This document shows, one piece after another, positions 3,933 through 43,847 of a DNA stretch of 60,298 bases. The DNA is from Patescibacteria group bacterium (lineage in GTDB: Bacteria; Patescibacteriota; Microgenomatia; Levybacterales; UBA12049): assembly GCA_038063415.1 (NCBI GenBank), contig JBBTVD010000009.1:81430-141727 (forward strand), written 5' to 3'. The notes under the pieces were generated by a model. That model was not told where the DNA came from and did not search any database. It saw only the letters and a program-made list of their open reading frames with translations. Every line of letters starts with the position of its first letter. Positions within the stretch are counted from its first letter, which is position 1. Both the position numbers and the translations under genes were made by a program.

Positions 3933-4280
3933 CTATAATGACAAAAGTAACTTTACTGCTTTGATTACTTCTTCTAGTTTATCTCTCTCAAGAGATCCAA
4001 CTTTTTTCATAAGCCGCTTTTGATCAATACTGCGGATAAAAATGGGCAATAATACAGATTGTTTTTCCAGGCCTTCTTTTTCTCCAATAGTCACCATTTC
4101 CGGGCCAATTGTATGGGGAACTTGAGAACTTATTGGGATAACAATCACTGAAAAACTTTTTTGATTGATGACATTCTCAGAGAAAACAAGTGCAGGTCTT
4201 TTTTTGTGAAGTTCACGATGTGTGCCAGGTTCAAGGTCAACAATCCAGATATCACCTCGCTCTGCTATTTCGTCGGCCAT
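3933..4280 (-). CDS. PemK/MazF-family endoribonuclease toxin
   Basis: 115 aa with GDIWIVDLEPGTHRELHKKRPALVFS, typical of MazF/PemK. Overlaps the upstream antitoxin ORF by 16 nt. Confidence 0.75.
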   Translation of the reverse strand: MADEIAERGDIWIVDLEPGTHRELHKKRPALVFSENVINQKSFSVIVIPISSQVPHTIGPEMVTIGEKEGLEKQSVLLPIFIRSIDQKRLMKKVGSLERDKLEEVIKAVKLLLSL

Positions 4281-10750: not shown

Positions 10751-10987
10751 ATGAACTCCATAAAAAAAGAATTGAAACATATTATTTATAAAGATAAAGA
10801 GATCTTAGGAGGAACGCCTTGTTTTGTTGGTACTCGGGTTCCTGTTGCTACAATTCTAGAGTATCTTTCTTTAGGATGGTCTATCAATGAGTTAAAGGAA
10901 TCTTACCCAACTGTTAAGACGGAGCATATTGCTCAATTATTATCAACGCTTTCGAGTGAATTCCAGGCACATGCAAAAGTCGCATAA
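10751..10987 (+). CDS. DUF433 domain protein (antitoxin-like)
   Basis: 78 aa with GGTPCFVGTRVPVATILEYL, characteristic of DUF433. Confidence 0.7.
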   Translation: MNSIKKELKHIIYKDKEILGGTPCFVGTRVPVATILEYLSLGWSINELKESYPTVKTEHIAQLLSTLSSEFQAHAKVA

Positions 10988-19350: not shown

Positions 19351-20094
19351 ATGGAATATAAACGAGTTTTTTGGGGACAAAAAAGTTTGCGCTTTTGGTA
19401 TCTCCGCTACAAAGATTCACCTTTGTATGCAGGAGCAGTTTTTGGTGTTATTAGTACGGTTTCGCTCATTTTGCTTATCTTTCTTGTTATTCCACAGATC
19501 CAGAGTTGGTTTTCGCTTCGGGAACAAGTTGTCCAAATGGAACAAAAGATTGCGGTATTGAGGAACAATACAACCTATTTACAATCAGTAGATCGAGCAC
19601 AAGTACAGAAGCAATTGGATATTTCTCTTGCAGCATTACCTTGGGATAAACAAGTAGATAGCATTTTACAAGCAATTAATAATGCCTCGATTACTTCAGG
19701 AGTCGGTTTAGGTGATTTTGCTTTCCAAATTGGCAATGTAAGTACTCTCGCGGCCAGTGTCACTTCCGATCCTGAAACACGAGGACTTAACACGACACGG
19801 GTTAATATCAGTGTAACCGGGAGTCTTGCAAGAGTACAAAAATTCCTTGAGACACTACAAAAAAGCTTACCACTTTCAGAAGTAATTAGCGCGGAAGGAA
19901 CGAGTCAATCAACAAATATTCTTATGCAGTTTTATCAAAAGCCACTTCCCTCGCTCTCTTTTAAGCCAGATAAGCCGATCGTTCCTGTCTCAGCGCAAGA
20001 TACCGCGTTGCTTAATCAATTATCAGAATGGAAAGTGCCAATAGTACCAGATCAAGTTATCGAGTCTTCAAACGCAGCTATTCCGCTTTTTTGA
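19351..20094 (+). CDS. PilO-like bitopic pilus assembly protein
   Basis: 247 aa with a single TM, directly abutting the PilN-like gene. Confidence 0.4.
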   Translation: MEYKRVFWGQKSLRFWYLRYKDSPLYAGAVFGVISTVSLILLIFLVIPQIQSWFSLREQVVQMEQKIAVLRNNTTYLQSVDRAQVQKQLDISLAALPWDKQVDSILQAINNASITSGVGLGDFAFQIGNVSTLAASVTSDPETRGLNTTRVNISVTGSLARVQKFLETLQKSLPLSEVISAEGTSQSTNILMQFYQKPLPSLSFKPDKPIVPVSAQDTALLNQLSEWKVPIVPDQVIESSNAAIPLF

Positions 20095-20836
20095 GGAGGT
20101 CTGGACGGACTGTTTTCGTTATAAGACGTGATTGTTCTTTTTTCCAAGCGGCAATTTCTTTATGGTTGCCTCCGCGTAAAACTTCAGGTACTTCCATTCC
20201 GTTATACGCTGCAGGTTTGGTATAGTGAGGATATTCTAAATACGTTTCAGTTTCTTTTTCTCCGGACAGAGAGAAAGATTCATTATCCGTTGCTCCCTGC
20301 GGAAGTACTCCTGGGATAAGCCGAGTTACGGCATCAGTTATCAGCATGGTTGGGATTTCTCCACCAGTTAAGACAAAGTCTCCTATCGAAACCTCTTCAT
20401 CAATATATGCCCCAATTCGTGCATCAATGCCTTCATAATGCCCACAAATAAGAATCAAATGGTCTAAGCTCGCATATGCTTTTGCTGTTGGTTGTTCAAA
20501 AGGTGTTCCAGTTGCACTCATGAGGACTACCCTCGTCATTCTGGCTTGTCCAGAATCAGTGTTACTTAAGATTCTGGATGCGCTCGGTTCTCGCTTACCA
20601 GAATGACGCTGCTTTGCATACTCAATTGCCTGATGTACGACATCAACCTTAAGTACCATCCCAACTCCCCCGCCGTAGGGTGTATCATCGACCATTTTGT
20701 GTGAGCCTACACCGAAATCTCTTATATTTATCAATTCGATTTCTATTGCTCCTTTTTCTTGTGCGCGTTTCACGATCGAATGATCAAATGGTCCGACAAA
20801 CATTTCAGGAAAAAGTGTTAAGATACTTATTTTCAT
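20078..20836 (-). CDS. trmD: tRNA (guanine37-N1)-methyltransferase, carrying an internal repeat-derived segment
   Basis: LTLFPEMF, DDTPYGGG and CGHYEGIDARI. Residues HSGKREPSASRILSNTDSGQARMT are encoded by repeat copy B. Confidence 0.9.
   Translation of the reverse strand: MKISILTLFPEMFVGPFDHSIVKRAQEKGAIEIELINIRDFGVGSHKMVDDTPYGGGVGMVLKVDVVHQAIEYAKQRHSGKREPSASRILSNTDSGQARMTRVVLMSATGTPFEQPTAKAYASLDHLILICGHYEGIDARIGAYIDEEVSIGDFVLTGGEIPTMLITDAVTRLIPGVLPQGATDNESFSLSGEKETETYLEYPHYTKPAAYNGMEVPEVLRGGNHKEIAAWKKEQSRLITKTVRPDLLKKAE
20535..20607. repeat. hairpin-pair palindromic repeat, copy B (inside trmD)
   Basis: gtc-attctggCTTGTccagaat...attctggATGCGCTCGGTTCTCGCTTAccagaat-gac. Confidence 0.8.
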
Positions 20837-20877
20837 AGCTTTATTTTAACAGAAACGAGTAGGATATCGTTGCGGTA

Positions 20878-22437: not shown

Positions 22438-22644
22438 TTACGCAGACGTTTGTACTGTCTTGGAACCATTCTTTTGTACAACTTGTTGTCCTTTGTAAAA
22501 ACCACAATTTTGGCAAATTGCGTGTGATGGGTGAAGCCCTCCACAGTTCTTGCAAATAACAGAATGAACTACCGTTAAACTGATACTTGCGCGTCGTTTT
22601 CCTTGACGTGCTCGTGAATGTCGTTTCTTTGGTTCGTGTGCCAT
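22438..22644 (-). CDS. rpmF: 50S ribosomal protein L32
   Basis: MAHEPKKRHSRARQGKRRA...CKNCGG..HAICQNCGFYKG. Start reset from 22764. Confidence 0.8.
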   Translation of the reverse strand: MAHEPKKRHSRARQGKRRASISLTVVHSVICKNCGGLHPSHAICQNCGFYKGQQVVQKNGSKTVQTSA

Positions 22645-22710
22645 ATATGCGTATTTTACTGTATTTGGCTTGAAGTTGCAAGAAGGAGTCGAATTTGCTA
22701 CTATGCAGCT

Positions 22711-22992
22711 ATGGATAATAAAACAATTACCATTCAAGAATATGAACTTCCGATTACGATTCAAGCAGAAGAGGAAGGTGGTTTTTTAGCTCATTGTCCT
22801 CTTTGGAAAGATTGCTACGCTCAGGGAGAAACTATTGAAGAAGCCATTACCGAAATAACATATGTAGCGTCTTCTCTTATTGAGATCTATAAAGAAGAAG
22901 ATATAAAGATTCCTTTAAAAGCCAAACATGCAGAGAAAAAAGCAAAGAAGGGATTTACGATTACTTTTCCTTTAATTGTTACTGCTTCATAG
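22711..22992 (+). CDS. hicB: HicB-family antitoxin
   Basis: ITIQAEEEGGFLAHCPLWKDCYAQGETIEEAITEI. Start reset to the ATG at 22711. Confidence 0.7.
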   Translation: MDNKTITIQEYELPITIQAEEEGGFLAHCPLWKDCYAQGETIEEAITEITYVASSLIEIYKEEDIKIPLKAKHAEKKAKKGFTITFPLIVTAS

Positions 22993-22995
22993 ATT

Positions 22996-23217
22996 ATGCC
23001 ACATATACCACCGATGTCATATCACAAAGTGATAAAGAAACTTCGTAAATTAGGCTTTGTATTTCGTCGGGCTACTGGAGGCTCTCATGAGGTATGGTGG
23101 AATGAACGAACGAGGAAAACTAGTATCGTTCCGTATCATAAAGAGGTTAAATCAGGGACGCTAAGGAGTATTATCGAGCAATGTGATATAAGTGAAAGGG
23201 AATTTTTGGAGGCGTAA
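22996..23217 (+). CDS. hicA: HicA-family mRNA interferase toxin
   Basis: 73 aa with YHKVIKKLRKLGFVFRRATGGSHEVWWN. Confidence 0.8.
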   Translation: MPHIPPMSYHKVIKKLRKLGFVFRRATGGSHEVWWNERTRKTSIVPYHKEVKSGTLRSIIEQCDISEREFLEA

Positions 23218-23961: not shown

Positions 23962-24037
23962 CTCTATAACTCTTCAATGATGAAGACCCCGAAGACACAG
24001 ACGTCCTCAAAAGTTTAGATTTAGTTTTATTTTTATT

Positions 24038-24127
24038 GTCATGCTGAACTCGTTTCAGCATCCCAAAAAAGATTCTGGACAAGCCAGAATGACGGCTTAC
24101 AAGATCCTGAAACAAGTTCAGGATGAC
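24038..24127. repeat. hairpin repeat, copy C (one full unit plus an extra hairpin) in the glnA leader
   Basis: gtc-atgctgaaCTCGtttcagcat...attctggACAAGccagaat-gac, then atcctgaAACAAGttcaggat-gac. The last ATG is the annotated glnA start. Confidence 0.75.
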
Positions 24128-25535
24128 AGAAAATATGATAGAAGAACAAAAAGCACTACAACTTATTACATCAGGCGAGATCCTCTTTGTTGATCTTCGA
24201 TTTACTGACATCCGCGGCGCATGGCAGCATATGACTATGACCGCACATGAATTCACTCCCGAAAATATCAAAAAAGGTTTTGGTTTTGATGGCTCAAGTA
24301 TTAAAGGTTTTAACTCTATCTTTGAGAGTGACATGTTACTTATGCCTGATATGGAGACCCCTTTCCTGGATCCATTTTACGAAAAAACATTAATTGTTAT
24401 CTGTGATGTCTATGATCCTATTACACGTGAGCCTTTTGAAAGAGATCCTCGTTATACAGCCAAAAAAGCAGAAGCGTACCTCAAGAAGACAGGGGTGGGT
24501 ACTATTTCTTACTGGGGTCCTGAAATTGAATTTTTTGTCTTTGATAAGTTGGCTATTGGTCTTCATCCACATAACTCGTTTATAAATATTGAGAGTAGTG
24601 AGATCCCCGACTTTCCTCAGGAGGGACATGATGGCTACAAGATTATGACCAAGAGTGGGTACTTCCCTACCCCTCCTTTTGATAAATTACAAGCATTTCG
24701 TTCGGAAATGGTAACGATTCTTGAATCAATTGGGATAACCGTTGAAGTCCATCATCATGAAGTCGCAACAGGAGGACAGGTAGAAATAGATATGCGCTAT
24801 GGCACACTGGTTGCAACGGCTGATAACGTGATGAAGTATAAATACGTTGCCCGAAATGTTGCCAAGAAGTACGGTATGACGGCTACCTTTCTTCCAAAGC
24901 CAATTGCTGGAGATAATGGTTCAGGGATGCATACGCATCAGAGTATTTTTAAAGCGGGCAAAAATGTCTTCTTTGACCCCAAAGGCTATGCTGAGCTTTC
25001 AAAACCAGCTCTCTCTTATGCTGCTGGCCTTCTCTCTCATCTTCGGGCATTACTTGGTATTACCAATAGTACACTCAGCTCCTATCGTAGACTCGTCCCT
25101 CACTACGAAGCACCAACAGCTATTGCTTTCTCTAAGCGCAACCGAAGCGCTGCGGTACGAGTGCCAATGTATTTTATGAATGATGAAAAGTCGAAACGAT
25201 TGGAGCTTCGTTGCCCTGATCCAACTACTAATCCTTATCTATCATTCTCTGCACAGTTGGTATTTGGACTTGATGGCATTGCCAAAAAACTTGATCCAAC
25301 AAAAGAAGGATTTGGACCTTTTGAGGAGAATATTTGGGAAAAATCCCGAGTCAAACAGACTCCTCAATCTCTTGTCGAAACGCTTGGATTCCTCAGGAAA
25401 GATAAAACACTTGTCGAAAGTGGTGTCTTCGCACAAAGTTTGCTGACAAACTATCTCGATATCAAAACAACTGAAATGCGTGAATCCCTTCTCTATCCTA
25501 CTCCAGCAGATTTCTGGTTCAATGGAGACCTCTAG
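24123..25535 (+). CDS. glnA: glutamine synthetase, type I
   Basis: 470 aa with GSGMHTHQS and overall GSI layout. An alternative start is the ATG at 24135. Confidence 0.9.
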   Translation: MTENMIEEQKALQLITSGEILFVDLRFTDIRGAWQHMTMTAHEFTPENIKKGFGFDGSSIKGFNSIFESDMLLMPDMETPFLDPFYEKTLIVICDVYDPITREPFERDPRYTAKKAEAYLKKTGVGTISYWGPEIEFFVFDKLAIGLHPHNSFINIESSEIPDFPQEGHDGYKIMTKSGYFPTPPFDKLQAFRSEMVTILESIGITVEVHHHEVATGGQVEIDMRYGTLVATADNVMKYKYVARNVAKKYGMTATFLPKPIAGDNGSGMHTHQSIFKAGKNVFFDPKGYAELSKPALSYAAGLLSHLRALLGITNSTLSSYRRLVPHYEAPTAIAFSKRNRSAAVRVPMYFMNDEKSKRLELRCPDPTTNPYLSFSAQLVFGLDGIAKKLDPTKEGFGPFEENIWEKSRVKQTPQSLVETLGFLRKDKTLVESGVFAQSLLTNYLDIKTTEMRESLLYPTPADFWFNGDL

Positions 25536-27160: not shown

Positions 27161-27223
27161 GTCTCCTGTCCAGAATCCGCCATATGATCCTGGGTGTGCT
27201 CGTACCTCGCTTACCAGGATGAC
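27161..27223. repeat. hairpin repeat, copy E (left arm degraded)
   Basis: ...tgtccagaat...atcctggGTGTGCTCGTACCTCGCTTAccaggat-gac, between convergent genes. Confidence 0.55.
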
Positions 27224-35171: not shown

Positions 35172-37298
35172 TTATTCCTTCAATCGTGCATTGTATTTTT
35201 CATGCAGTATTTTAAGCATGTTTTTTCGTATCTCCCCTACTTCCTCATCTGTCAGATTCTTTTCATAGCTTTGATAAATAATATGAAAGGTTCGGGTATC
35301 CTGATATTTGTCCAAAAGCGTAACAGACGCAATCAGTGGATTTTGCTTTGTAATTGTTTCAATAATAGTTCCTGTCAGTACGTCAGATGGAGCAATTAGT
35401 GCAAGATCTTCCACAATCGGTGGGAATTTACTGGTCGGTTTATAGATTTTTTTCAATGTGGCATGCTCAAGTAATCGACGAAAGTCTAGTTCAAAGCTAA
35501 TAAGATTCGAGTTTTCGATAGTGATCGTTCCAACAGACGTCATTCTGGCAAGTGAAGCGCGTCCAGAATCGATTCTGGAGTCCTCACGTTGTTTGTCCCC
35601 AGAATGACGAAGAGAAATTTCCGCACCATCGTTAGTTGCTGTATAGACTGCTTCATTGATACCAAGCTCGCGGAAAAGCTGCTCTATAATTCCTTTTACT
35701 TCATAAAAAGAGACCTTATCTTTTTTGACCACGCCGGCAAGCGTAAGTTTTTCTTCCGGCAGCGCATGTGCTTTTTTGACGTAGACATTTGCGATTTCAA
35801 AAATATGGACGGTATCATATTTTTTATTTTCTTTTATTACTTTGAGCAAGCTTGGGGTAAGGGTTCTTCGCATCACGACAAATTCTTCAGAAAGTGGGTT
35901 TTCAATCGTAACCGCATCTTCAATCTTGCCGTCATACAGTTCTTTGGGAACCATTGGGTAGGTATAGACTTCGGTGAAGCCCCAGTATTTGAGCATATCT
36001 TTGACCCTATCTTCCCAGAAGAATTCATTCTTTCCATAGGCTGTTGGTGCTGCTTGTTCTACTGCTGGAAGCTTATCCGGGATGTTTTGATAGCCATAAA
36101 TACGGGCTATTTCTTCAATAACGTCTTCTGGAATGGTAATATCTTTTGCCCGAAAAGATGGAGGAGTAACGGTCAAAATGTTTTTTGTCATGCTGGCTTG
36201 TCCAGCATCTTTTTTAGATTCTGGACGCGTTCTTTTATCGCTTGCCAGAATGACGTGAGATGAAATTTTTGTCGCAAATCCCAGACTTTGCATAATATGT
36301 GCAGATTCATTCACCGTAACCGGTACTCCCATAACGGATGCAATTTGTTCCTCCGTTACTGAGACGGTTTGGATCTGAGGCTTGTTTGAATATGTATCAA
36401 TAATCTCTGAAATGATCTTTCCGTCAGCTACTTCTTCAAAAAGTTTGACACCATAGGCAAATGCATCGGTTGCAAGTTCTGGATCAACTCCCTTTTCGTT
36501 AAGTACTGCGGCTTCTGAACGAATTCCCAGACCCATAGAAGTCTTTCTAATTTGCTGTGCATCATTATTGTCAATAAAGAAAAGAATCCGTTTGGTTTCG
36601 TTGGTTACCACACTGTTTTCAAGTCCCATGATAGCAAGTAAATCAATGATTCTTCCCGAATCATCTACTGCGATAATATCTCCATCTCGGAGGGTATGTA
36701 TTTTCTTATCGAGGGTTTCTATTTTTTCTCCTTTTTTGGCTCCTCGTATCGTCAGGCTTTTGGTTGCAAGCCGATCGTAGTCAAAGACGTGTGTTGGATG
36801 ACCGATCACCCGCATGACATAATTGGTAACATCGATAAGGTTGCTGAGACTTCTGATATCCGTTGCTTCCAAACGGTTTTTAATTAGCTCAGGAGAAGGC
36901 TTCACCGTTACTTCCATTACCACTGCCATAACTCGGTTAGTTAGTTTTTCGTTGGTATGAATCGTTAGCTTCACGTTGTCATCCCCGACTCCGATCGGGG
37001 ATCCAGTTCTCTTCTGGATTCCTGCCTTCGCAGGAATGACAGATAATGCTGGTGGAGTAAAGGTTGCCGAGATACCATTTTGGTTGAGTACTGCGGCTGT
37101 CTCCCGTGCCAGACCAAGGATGGACATCAGATCAGGTCTATTGGTCGTAATTTCAATATCATAGACATAGTCTTCGTTATACTTCTCAAGGCGTTCGACC
37201 GAGACACTTGCGAGTGACAAAAGCTCCGCAATTTTTTGCGGTTTTGCGGTTGTTTTGACGTATTCTTTGAGCCAAGAGTCTAAAATTTTGATATTCAT
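35172..37298 (-). CDS. pheT: phenylalanyl-tRNA synthetase beta subunit, carrying three internal repeat-derived segments
   Basis: 708 aa with SWLKEYV N-terminus, TNRPDLMSILGLARE (B3/4) and a C-terminal anticodon-binding-like domain. Repeat copies H, I and J lie in frame. Confidence 0.9.
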   Translation of the reverse strand: MNIKILDSWLKEYVKTTAKPQKIAELLSLASVSVERLEKYNEDYVYDIEITTNRPDLMSILGLARETAAVLNQNGISATFTPPALSVIPAKAGIQKRTGSPIGVGDDNVKLTIHTNEKLTNRVMAVVMEVTVKPSPELIKNRLEATDIRSLSNLIDVTNYVMRVIGHPTHVFDYDRLATKSLTIRGAKKGEKIETLDKKIHTLRDGDIIAVDDSGRIIDLLAIMGLENSVVTNETKRILFFIDNNDAQQIRKTSMGLGIRSEAAVLNEKGVDPELATDAFAYGVKLFEEVADGKIISEIIDTYSNKPQIQTVSVTEEQIASVMGVPVTVNESAHIMQSLGFATKISSHVILASDKRTRPESKKDAGQASMTKNILTVTPPSFRAKDITIPEDVIEEIARIYGYQNIPDKLPAVEQAAPTAYGKNEFFWEDRVKDMLKYWGFTEVYTYPMVPKELYDGKIEDAVTIENPLSEEFVVMRRTLTPSLLKVIKENKKYDTVHIFEIANVYVKKAHALPEEKLTLAGVVKKDKVSFYEVKGIIEQLFRELGINEAVYTATNDGAEISLRHSGDKQREDSRIDSGRASLARMTSVGTITIENSNLISFELDFRRLLEHATLKKIYKPTSKFPPIVEDLALIAPSDVLTGTIIETITKQNPLIASVTLLDKYQDTRTFHIIYQSYEKNLTDEEVGEIRKNMLKILHEKYNARLKE
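35539..35607. repeat. hairpin-pair repeat, copy H (inside pheT)
   Basis: gtc-attctggCAAGTGAAGCGCGTccagaat-cg-attctgg...ccagaat-gac. Encodes RHSGDKQREDSRIDSGRASLARMT. Confidence 0.8.
36187..36254. repeat. hairpin-pair repeat, copy I (inside pheT)
   Basis: gtc-atgctggCTTGTccagcat...attctggACGCGTTCTTTTATCGCTTGccagaat-gac. Encodes VILASDKRTRPESKKDAGQASMT. Confidence 0.8.
36978..37040. repeat. hairpin-pair repeat, copy J (inside pheT)
   Basis: gtc-atccccgACTCCGATcggggat...attcctgCCTTCGcaggaat-gac. Encodes SVIPAKAGIQKRTGSPIGVGDD. Confidence 0.8.
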
Positions 37299-38786: not shown

Positions 38787-38812
38787 ATTACATTATATTT
38801 GCGCATTCCTGC

Positions 38813-38876
38813 GTCATTCTGGCTTGTCCAGAATCAGATGATTAGATCCTGGATGCGTTTCACTTACCAGGATGAC
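38813..38876. repeat. hairpin-pair repeat, copy K (best-preserved unit)
   Basis: gtc-attctggCTTGTccagaat...atcctggATGCGTTTCACTTAccaggat-gac, between the aminotransferase stop and the pheS start. Confidence 0.85.
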
Positions 38877-40056: not shown

Positions 40057-41427
40057 TTATATCCTCTTTACCAGGAGAAAACTAGTATAATTCTCCGTGA
40101 GATCTTGCAAGTTTTCTTCAATTTTTTGTAAATCATAGATATCCGCAAGAATTTTACTCCCCAACGTTGCGATATGTTTGGGTAACTTCCCTTCGGCAAT
40201 ATGTTTGGCGACAAGGGCTGTATCAATAAGCTCTCCTTCCCCTGACGTTAATTCTAAATGAGGATATTTTTTCGCAAGGGTTTCTTTGCATTGTGCTAGT
40301 ACCTGTGGATGGCACATGATCGTTGTAACTTCCTCAAAAGGGATATCTTTTCGAGTCATTAACGTATGGGAGATAATGATCGCAAATTCCTCGATAATTG
40401 CAAATTTATGCCTGGCCATTGCCTCAACACTTTCCATAACGATGCCTCCTGTAGCATTGTGCATTGCAAATACTCCTTGGTCGATATTCCCTTCATGAAG
40501 TTCCCGTAGGACATTTTCTGTTGTGTAAAGATAGGTAATTTCTGCATTGACGATGTTATGTTGCTTAAGATAGTCTTCGATAGCTTCTTCATTAAAACTT
40601 CCTATGCCACCTTGGATACCTATGGTGAGTTTAGCTTTGTCGATACGTTCTGGAATCAGTTTATTAAAGAGTCCATCATAAATCTCTCCAAACTTTACCC
40701 GCATTTGCTTGGTGTAGGGATTATAATGCTGCATATCGGTAAAGAGTTCCCAGGTGTCATTGCATACCTGTTCTTTGACTTGCAGTAATCGTTTGGTACC
40801 CAGTGAGTCAATTGGTGTTTCTTTTAGCTTATACTCTCCGAGCATTCTTCCAATAAAGTGTGTCAGCCCAAGTGAATTTGCGGAAAGATGATCATGTTCT
40901 TCTGCTGACATTTCGATTACTTGGAGCTGTTTTGCCACAAAGTATTCTTTCCAAAAAGCATAGGTTCTCTCATTTGTACGGAATTGCTCGATGATGATCG
41001 GAAGCTCCTCAAATCCATCTTTGCTACTATCTGGACCAAACATTGGATGGGTGAGGAGTGCCTGTGTTTTTTTATTTTTTAGTATGTGAGTAAACACTTT
41101 TTTGGGATGGCACTTTACCGTAAGGACATCAATCAGTACATGATGATCAGTAATGTATGTCTCATGTTCTTTGAGGACTTCTTCGAAAGCAGACATAGGG
41201 ACAGCATAAAAGATAGTATCATTTTGATAGGCAGCGGTGAGACTATCGGTGAAGTTTATTTTAGATATGTCATGCTGAACTTGTTTCAGCATCTTTTCTT
41301 TTGATGCTTGAGTTCCCGAAACAAGTTCGGGATGACGAGTATAAATGGTAATCTCAAAATCATCTTGCAACAGACGAACCAACGTCTGTCCAAATCTTCC
41401 ATAACCGATGATTGTTATCTTTTTCAT
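40057..41427 (-). CDS. fused prephenate dehydrogenase (TyrA-like N-terminus) / prephenate dehydratase (PheA-like C-terminus), with an internal repeat-derived segment
   Basis: Rossmann KITIIGYGRFGQT. C-terminal half LTIGIQGGIGSFNEEA ... ENYTSFLLV (TRF-like). Repeat copy L encodes RHPELVSGTQASKEKMLKQVQHD. Confidence 0.7.
   Translation of the reverse strand: MKKITIIGYGRFGQTLVRLLQDDFEITIYTRHPELVSGTQASKEKMLKQVQHDISKINFTDSLTAAYQNDTIFYAVPMSAFEEVLKEHETYITDHHVLIDVLTVKCHPKKVFTHILKNKKTQALLTHPMFGPDSSKDGFEELPIIIEQFRTNERTYAFWKEYFVAKQLQVIEMSAEEHDHLSANSLGLTHFIGRMLGEYKLKETPIDSLGTKRLLQVKEQVCNDTWELFTDMQHYNPYTKQMRVKFGEIYDGLFNKLIPERIDKAKLTIGIQGGIGSFNEEAIEDYLKQHNIVNAEITYLYTTENVLRELHEGNIDQGVFAMHNATGGIVMESVEAMARHKFAIIEEFAIIISHTLMTRKDIPFEEVTTIMCHPQVLAQCKETLAKKYPHLELTSGEGELIDTALVAKHIAEGKLPKHIATLGSKILADIYDLQKIEENLQDLTENYTSFLLVKRI
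41269..41336. repeat. hairpin-pair repeat, copy L (inside the tyrA-pheA fusion)
   Basis: gtc-atgctgaACTTGTttcagcat...tcccgaaACAAGttcggga-tgac. Confidence 0.8.
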
Positions 41428-41711: not shown

Positions 41712-41723
41712 AATAATAAATGC

Positions 41724-41807
41724 GTCATTCTGGCTTGTCCACTCCGATTTAATCGGAGTCCAGAATCTATAATAAGATCCTGGATGCGCTTCGCTTACCA
41801 GGATGAC
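41724..41807. repeat. hairpin-pair repeat, copy M, with a nested extra hairpin
   Basis: As copy K, but the loop of hairpin 1 contains actccgaTTTAAtcggagt. Confidence 0.8.
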
Positions 41808-41814
41808 GTATACG

Positions 41815-43671: not shown

Positions 43672-43847
43672 GTCATCCTGACCGAAGTGGAAGGATCTCT
43701 TTTCTGTCATTCCCGCGAAGGCGGGAATCTAATTATATTGATCCCCGGGTCAAGCCCGAGGATGACAGTTCTGTTTATGAGATTCTTCGACTACACGTTC
43801 TCCCGATTAAATCGAGATTCCTTCCGCTCAGAATGACATGGAACTTT
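43672..43847. repeat. composite cluster of about three hairpin-repeat units, copy N
   Basis: gtcatcctgaccgaagtggaaggat; gtc-attcccgcGAAGgcgggaat...atccccgggTCAAGcccgaggat-gac; ...ctcccgattaaatcgag...cagaatgac. Confidence 0.75.

Follow-up and report, generated by a model that had tools for sequence, protein, structure and literature searches.

The gene trmD, in a stretch of 60,298 nucleotides (nt) from a Patescibacteria group bacterium (Levybacterales; contig JBBTVD010000009.1), carries a 75-nt palindromic repeat within its codons. The whole stretch is called the window below. We consider it very probable that the repeat, at positions 20534-20608, is a hairpin dimer of the type known as CGTC-tagged repetitive extragenic palindromes (REPs), that its family litters this Levybacteria genome, and that the copy in the codons of a TrmD surface loop is translated with the gene as a disordered loop of 25 residues, leaving the catalytic core intact. 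All coordinates are window positions; WIN denotes the window sequence, L-numbers the contigs of relatives and P-numbers the TrmD proteins of relatives.

The repeat copy and its host gene

Positions 20535-20607 read GTCATTCTGG...CCAGAATGAC, and with the flanking C and G they form the 75-nt unit 20534-20608, equal to 25 codons. The unit is an inverted pair of hairpins with the CGTC tags facing outward, and it encodes TrmD residues 77-101, RHSGKREPSASRILSNTDSGQARMT. In brief, the plus strand carries a short hairpin, then C, a 12-nt spacer and G, and then a long hairpin that closes with GACG. The short-loop unit (20534-20559, plus strand) consists of the tag CGTC, the stem ATTCTGG, the loop CTTGT, the stem CCAGAAT and the tail CAG; the gene reads it as DSGQARMT, and identical units are found at 24069-24094 and 38812-38837. 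The long-loop unit (20568-20608, minus strand) has the same tag and stem arms around a 20-nt loop, TAAGCGAGAACCGAGCGCAT, followed by the tail CTT, and the gene reading is RHSGKREPSASRI. Its loop type, TAAGCGA..GCGCAT, recurs in the window copies at 27184, 34377, 36215, 38843 and 41774. The spacer between the two units (20558-20569) reads AGTGTTACTTAA on the plus strand; spacers of 12 nt with different sequences are also present in relatives L083, L086 and L087. For the sense-strand RNA of this region the folding energy is -34.4 kcal/mol (z = -4.4). No Rfam family matches the element at the gathering score, the sole match being a tRNA.

The host gene, trmD (20078-20836, minus strand), is intact and encodes a tRNA (guanine37-N1)-methyltransferase of 252 amino acids (aa). 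The open reading frame (ORF) matches Pfam PF01746 with E = 1.6e-50 and a score of 172 bits against a cut-off of 27.3. It has matches to TrmD entries in the PDB down to 6e-62, and Foldseek gives TM scores of 0.70-0.79 to TrmD structures. The frame stays open through the repeat, so that the protein reads ...AKQ-RHSGKREPSASRILSNTDSGQARMT-RVVLMSATG...; the claim of an earlier reading of the window, made from the sequence only, that a repeat copy is embedded in frame in trmD is thus confirmed, with the sequence as it was quoted. At all 47 invariant positions of a 114-sequence alignment of relatives, the enzyme has the conserved residue. With the residue list for Haemophilus influenzae TrmD in PMC5372744 (residues for G36, G37 and AdoMet; AdoMet, S-adenosylmethionine) as reference, alignment shows that D50, Y54, G59 and R172 (R154 in H. 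influenzae) are present. The SPQG cover loop of the TrmD knot corresponds to SATG 107-110, and DSF 169-171 of H. influenzae would correspond to ESF 186-188, E186 being the likely equivalent by motif. The protein is probably made and active with the insert.

The sequence-only reading held that the segment lengthens a short loop before a VIYLSPQG-type strand, RVVLMSATG in WIN, and had proposed an alignment with orthologs and a mapping onto structure. Both analyses bear it out. Solved TrmD structures align on both flanks and lack about 20-24 residues at the insert, and in insert-free relatives the loop is 7-15 residues long. The HMMER match to Staphylococcus aureus TrmD is split into residues 2-72 and 98-250, and the alignment with Anaplasma TrmD has a 20-residue gap precisely at the insert, over GKREPSASRILSNTDSGQAR. 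An AlphaFold2 model built from a 114-sequence input (mean predicted local distance difference test score, pLDDT, 84.8) has a helix at 64-80, which takes in the element-coded RHSG, a coil at 81-100 and a strand at 101-112. The coil is modelled with low confidence, with a mean pLDDT of 58 at 81-90 and 51 at 91-100, and values below 50 at 90-97. The insert ends with T101, and the five residues of strand R102-M106 alone precede the AdoMet cover loop. On the basis of secondary structure and sequence alignment, on which this placement rests, we suggest that the insert departs from the sheet at the strand end remote from the AdoMet pocket, and that it is N-terminal to the knotted segment.

Support across the junctions, which had also been proposed as a check, comes from the Logan contigs of four runs, which represent three groundwater samples in a single study. 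These cover 20300-20800, span both junctions with 0 differences, and contain no joint that skips the element; the support is thus from assembled contigs and not from raw reads, and the source sample may be among those used. Depth in the runs is higher over the element, as other copies align there. Another contig in these runs carries a near-identical twin of the long-loop unit, which differs by 1 mismatch and 1 indel in 41 nt and is absent from the window; the equal depth of that contig is only suggestive of a location in the same genome.

The TrmD loop in relatives

The nearest TrmD proteins are 60-70% identical to that of WIN over the full length and up to 75% with the loop masked, and several come from organisms named Levybacteria by their sources. 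We delimited the loop between the helix end ..AIEYAK and the strand ..VVLLSASG in 119 TrmD proteins. The loop measures 7-19 residues in 90 of these, with modes at 9 and 15. Peptides of the form RHSG...(A/S)RMT occupy it in 11 proteins, and VIL/VIP...QDD, the other open frame of the same repeat termini, in 4. At least 15 of the 119 relatives carry such repeats at the loop, patchily distributed over the tree. Length variation among the 114 aligned sequences is confined to the two termini, the helix/strand loop and the interdomain linker, and every RHSG falls in the loop.

The DNA of the relatives tells whether the peptide occurs in TrmD proteins of taxa that lack the repeat, the pattern that the sequence-only reading had named as speaking against it. 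Dimers of the form CGTCATTCTGG...CCAGAATGACG lie at the trmD loop, in the same orientation, in L081, L083, L085, L086 and L087. In L082 the loop holds a single hairpin, CGTCATTCTGG-ACAAG-CCAGAATGACG, which would be the exact remnant expected from a deletion between the dimer's two direct ATTCTGG arms. L088 and L001 have other or decayed repeat variants, and the loop is empty in L084, L089, L002, L003, L090 and L091. The relatives with the segment thus encode it by the same repeat and other close relatives lack it, and we therefore regard the loop as a hot spot and retain the reading as a repeat copy.

On a TrmD tree calculated with the loop removed, a minimum of 10 changes is required to explain the RHSG..RMT state, and the starred branches force at least 6; the deep branches of this tree are weak. 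Two well-supported sister pairs differ in the presence of the insert at 88-89% protein identity, and in the pair P0012/P0057 the flanks align around a clean 32-residue insertion. The number of residues between the flank and RHSG varies by lineage from 0 to 6. Several TrmD proteins hold other repeat-like peptides at the loop. In P0030, P0042, P0061, P0084, P0089 and P0118 these are RGTxDT/GTLDT runs, which look like translated short tandem repeats of the heptamer type and represent a different repeat family at the same permissive loop. Unrelated contigs, mostly gut or Firmicutes-like (L098, L099, L127, L140, L161, L170 and L171), encode 18-24 extra residues at the loop without CGTC hairpins. 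Since loop expansions are recurrent, patchy and in part unrelated, the loop between helix 3 and the following strand is generally permissive in TrmD, and in Levybacteria it has seen many gains, losses or exchanges of hairpin repeats.

Two relatives show further events at the loop. In L087 the second trmD hairpin (2394-2440) has a compensated stem, ATGCTG/CAGCAT, and its loop is broken by another small hairpin, GATCCCGTCTAGCGGGGC, which is therefore a nested insertion in an intragenic copy. In P0007 (278 aa) the loop contains a second copy of the helix end (..AIEFAK.. followed by ..VIEYAK-RHSG), which suggests a local duplication beside the element.

The trmD genes of WIN, L081, L083 and L086 are 68-72% identical, with 53% of nucleotide columns invariant overall but only 19% of third codon positions. 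The four genes nevertheless agree in every one of the 38 tag and stem bases, for which P is about 4e-11 at the gene-wide rate; they differ in loops and spacers, which argues for conservation acting on the hairpin and not on the peptide. The net charge of the insert peptide ranges from +2.9 to -1.1 among relatives, WIN being at about +3. WIN, L083 and L086 share the 75-nt plan in the same orientation, with a 20-nt loop, a 12-nt spacer and a 5-nt loop. The long loops of L083 and L086 agree at 14/20 positions, about as alike as the genes, and that of WIN agrees with either at 6-7/20. The loop type of the relatives, GGAGGA..GACT, is present in WIN in the gene pheT, where 35569-35609 matches the L087 loop at 18/20 positions. 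Two histories would fit: independent acquisition of the WIN copy, or replacement of a resident long-loop hairpin by another copy. Selection on DNA or RNA structure might keep tags and stems invariant, as might correction against other copies.

The repeat family and its reading frame

Copies of the repeat are frequent in the window. The pattern GTCATYCTGG-N40-70-CCAGRATGAC occurs 6 times in the 60 kb and 0 times in 100 shuffles. A perfect hairpin of at least 6 bp follows 26 of 113 GTCAT sites, against a mean of 1.7 and a maximum of 5 in 50 dinucleotide shuffles. The 25 tabulated units carry 13 CGTC, 11 TGTC and 1 GGTC tags. All 25 start the stem with A:T and T:A at positions 1-2, have C:G at position 4 and begin the tail with C, which continues to CCA in some. 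Stems are 6-8 bp long and of 11 distinct sequences. As the units were chosen for perfect pairing, covariation in the stems is partly circular, and we put weight on the shuffle control and on the comparison of orthologs. Most units are arranged as inverted pairs and some are single.

Two copies lie in frame within pheT, the domains of which were confirmed: RHSGDKQREDSRIDSGRASLARMT at 35538-35609 and VILASDKRTRPESKKDAGQASMT at 36186-36255. The first reads RHSG...ARMT throughout, and the second has the tail AGQASMT, set in the sequence-only reading beside the SGQARMT of trmD; the readings agree, and the same element is indeed read in the same frame in two unrelated proteins. The six readings of the trmD copy include two without a stop codon. 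The frame in use has a grand average of hydropathy (GRAVY) of -1.32, against -0.18 for the other, with its many Trp, Phe and Cys residues. L083, L086 and the pheT copy show the same pattern of two open frames with the hydrophilic one in use. In an element whose length is a multiple of three (3n), the TGA of AATGAC always closes one frame, and intragenic copies are always 3n long and stop-free in the frame of the host gene. If the only insertions to survive are those of 3n length that are stop-free, hydrophilic and in tolerant loops, the common frame is accounted for, and a shared frame in unrelated proteins therefore needs no special mechanism.

A third copy within pheT is located at 36977-37041, and a single unit in a 456-aa ORF (40057-41427) at 41268-41295 on the plus strand, where it is read as KEKMLKQVQHD. 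About 5 of roughly 15 element loci in the window are intragenic (1 in trmD, 3 in pheT and 1 in the 456-aa ORF). Given the small intergenic share of the ORF map, this is far below the expectation for random insertion, and it fits the filter described above.

Other copies touch the starts of ORFs. Three successive units at 24037-24128 lie upstream of and overlap the start (24123) of a 470-aa ORF; they fill its leader, and the ..GGATGAC of the last one provides its ATG. An 86-nt copy at 41723-41808 falls within the first 44 codons of an ORF called chorismate mutase. The CM_2 domain begins only at residue 62, and the true start is therefore probably downstream of the copy, which would place the copy in the leader. 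The intergenic unit TGTCATTCCCGCGAAGGCGGGAATCTAA (43705-43731, plus strand) is part of a cluster of several different hairpins at 43672-43837, in a genome of the Candidate Phyla Radiation (CPR) with 39% G+C. Hairpins headed by CGTC-ATTCTGG are also found in viral contigs of high G+C content, and this stem type is therefore not confined to the CPR. In L172 (3996-4719), and likewise in L175 and L178, which are related IMG/VR contigs with 62% G+C, a 221-aa ORF without a Pfam match lies between two such hairpins, which are oriented alike.

A gap of only 41 nt (20837-20877) lies between trmD and a gene for a KH protein. In relatives this slot holds an ORF: one of 130-174 aa without Pfam matches in L081, L082 and L084, and one of 484-586 aa in L083 and L087. 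In WIN trmD is not followed by rplS, and a convergent pilO-like ORF overlaps its end. Elsewhere in the window, at 3933-4280, 10751-10987 and 22618-23217, there are genes of toxin-antitoxin type, namely MazF/PemK (E = 4e-24), DUF433 (E = 2e-17) and HicA (E = 4e-17) with a weak HicB-like partner.

Origin of the insert and comparison with known systems

CGTC-tagged REPs were described in a 2013 survey (Di Nocera, De Gregorio and Rocco, BMC Genomics 14:522, PMC3733652). They form the families CGTC-1 to CGTC-4 and include dRS3 of Neisseria and RPE-4 and RPE-6 of Rickettsia conorii. In brief, an unpaired tag CGTC (variants TGTC and CCTC) is followed by a stem of 8-9 bp with A-T pairs at the first and second positions, a loop of 4-5 nt (other lengths in some species) and an unpaired tail that is mostly CCA. 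They occur in many copies, mostly as inverted dimers, favour sites just past stop codons, and have no known transposase; dimers within ORFs encode 20-30 aa. The window family has in common with them the CGTC/TGTC tag, the A-T start of the stem, the 5-nt loop in one trmD unit, the C-initial tail, the high copy number (26 units in 60 kb), the predominance of inverted dimers, the usual position shortly after stop codons, the lack of a known transposase and an intragenic dimer, that of trmD, encoding 25 aa. It differs in that one trmD unit has a 20-nt loop and in that the trmD tails are CAG and CTT and not CCA.

The hairpins also resemble a second published class. The Neisseria sequence NTS reads CGTCATTCCCGCGMAVGCGGGAATCYRG, and the small GIY-YIG nuclease Ssn binds and cuts single-stranded DNA (ssDNA) beside such hairpins (Chenal et al. 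2025, Nat Commun 16:2388, PMC11893778). The same paper gives HGTCWYN(0-2)YYVSBRHN(0-5)WNVSBRGN(0-2)RNCYNB as the search pattern for the Ssn-related motif (SRM); in a genome with members of this class, copies would be expected on either side of a small ssn gene of GIY-YIG type. The paper shows binding, cleavage and an effect on transformation, shows no mobilisation, and mentions neither Patescibacteria nor intragenic copies. The CGTCAT head and the hairpin plan are common to both. The unit at 43705-43731 equals the quoted NTS consensus at 26/28 positions and fails the SRM at the first base and in the tail; alone among the window units, the first unit of the third pheT copy (36977-37006) fits the SRM. 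Taken together, the trmD copy appears to be a CGTC-tagged REP in the broad sense, and a relative of the SRM more than a demonstrated member.

The copy lies in codons of the TrmD loop between helix 3 and the strand leading into the AdoMet cover loop. We propose that it is transcribed and translated with trmD, because it is 3n long and read in its one stop-free hydrophilic frame, as a disordered loop of 25 residues that leaves the knotted catalytic core intact, and it would persist because the loop tolerates almost any insert. The element may spread as a single-stranded hairpin with the help of a hairpin-specific enzyme. The sole published candidate is an Ssn-type GIY-YIG ssDNA nuclease, and mobilisation by Ssn has been demonstrated nowhere. 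Several points weigh against this proposal. No RNA run containing the stretch was found, and we infer both that the insert is translated and that the enzyme is active. The trmD stems are of 7 bp, not the 8-9 bp of the surveyed REPs, and neither trmD unit fits the strict SRM. A six-frame motif scan of the window and Pfam scans of 20 ORFs detected no ssn/GIY-YIG gene. The junction support is at contig level only and compatible with a minority allele without the insert, and no near-identical strain with an empty site fixes the exact insertion junction in the WIN lineage.

The history of the copy may have been different without a change in the nature of the element. A long-resident dimer could have had its long-loop hairpin overwritten by another copy in the genome, with no fresh insertion; either gene conversion or an enzyme specific for hairpins might have brought this about. 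The exactly shared 75-nt 20/12/5 architecture and orientation of WIN, L083 and L086 would be explained in this way, as would the 38 tag and stem bases that are identical in these and L081 despite the divergence of the gene. It also agrees with a WIN long loop that departs from those of L083 and L086 (6-7/20, against 14/20 between these two), is of a type shared with other copies in the genome, and has a near-identical twin in the same runs. However, the same data would follow if a common dimer type had inserted independently at a permissive loop and its hydrophilic orientation had then been selected; the flanking residues before RHSG differ in number between lineages (0-6), and the deep branches of the tree are weak. 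We regard turnover in place as possible but rather doubtful. Somewhat more speculative is the idea that intragenic hairpins stay active: with tags and stems base-perfect at about 30% trmD divergence and entire hairpin modules (loop types) swapped with copies elsewhere in the genome, a copy or repair activity specific for hairpins, perhaps an Ssn-type ssDNA nuclease, might make a few permissive loops, that of TrmD among them, into standing landing pads that are rewritten again and again.

The remaining explanations concern the nature of the segment. That the extra basic loop serves TrmD, for example in binding tRNA or a partner, would fit its retention in several lineages, the net charge of about +3 in WIN and the modelled joining of the insert ends to helix 64-80 and strand 101-112. 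It is improbable, as the charge varies freely (+2.9 to -1.1), sister TrmDs that are 88-89% identical lack the insert, the DNA stem and not the loop-encoded residues is conserved, and the insert is predicted to be disordered. We give hardly any credence to an ancestral, lineage-specific TrmD loop that merely resembles the repeat: some relatives do have similar peptides at the same place, but the same DNA lies between genes, in pheT and in other ORFs, and many close relatives as well as solved TrmDs are without the segment. Short repeats can mislead assemblers, and depth rises over the element, so a repeat-induced chimeric join might in principle have put it into trmD. Four separately assembled runs from three samples with both junctions the same and 0 differences, the continuity of the trmD frame and of both flanks, and the same arrangement in independent assemblies of relatives make such an artefact most unlikely. 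Finally, the mRNA segment would form a very stable double hairpin (-34.4 kcal/mol) and might be removed or bypassed at the RNA or translation level, giving a protein without the 25 residues. Intragenic copies are always 3n long and stop-free, which would be unnecessary if they were removed, and we know of no precedent in the CGTC repeat class; the chance of this is very slight.

An in-frame REP-type dimer, the reading we prefer, would have several consequences. Such inserts would account for many of the lineage-specific "extra loops" of CPR proteins and ought to be recognised as such in annotation and structure prediction. A weakly constrained protein segment with stems that are base-perfect would also provide a clean natural test of whether selection or copy-correction maintains the hairpins. 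The hot-spot loop and the invariant stems within a coding region are in our opinion the parts most worth following.

We first tried to identify the element as a miniature inverted-repeat transposable element (MITE) resembling a Rickettsia palindromic element (RPE). It shares with MITEs the small size, the lack of coding capacity of its own, the many copies and 11-nt terminal inverted repeats, CGTCATTCTGG / CCAGAATGACG. We rejected the MITE identity: a target-site duplication was sought at the trmD copy and other inspected copies and no flanking direct repeat was found there, there is no parent insertion sequence, and the modular hairpins also occur singly. RPEs are palindromic repeats found in frame in unrelated housekeeping genes at fold-compatible sites (Ogata et al. 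2000, as summarised in PMC10969869), and the trmD element is likewise an in-frame palindromic repeat in housekeeping genes. As far as that summary goes, the RPEs described first are of about 150 bp with a conserved peptide, whereas the trmD element is modular and has 75 nt. The link to RPEs rests on the survey equating RPE-4 and RPE-6, and only these, with CGTC REPs.

The phenomenon as such is already known from Rickettsia and the 2013 survey, and it is seen here in a new host group. CPR/Patescibacteria lie outside the survey, and trmD is not among the genes with intragenic copies discussed in it, in the parts used here. Within the searchable literature, no paper was found that links the CGTC-tagged repeat class to CPR/Patescibacteria or to the trmD site. 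The trmD copy shows that the habit of selfish palindromes, seen in essential genes of Rickettsia, extends to the CPR/Patescibacteria, that is to ultra-small groundwater Levybacteria, and here to a knotted SPOUT enzyme.

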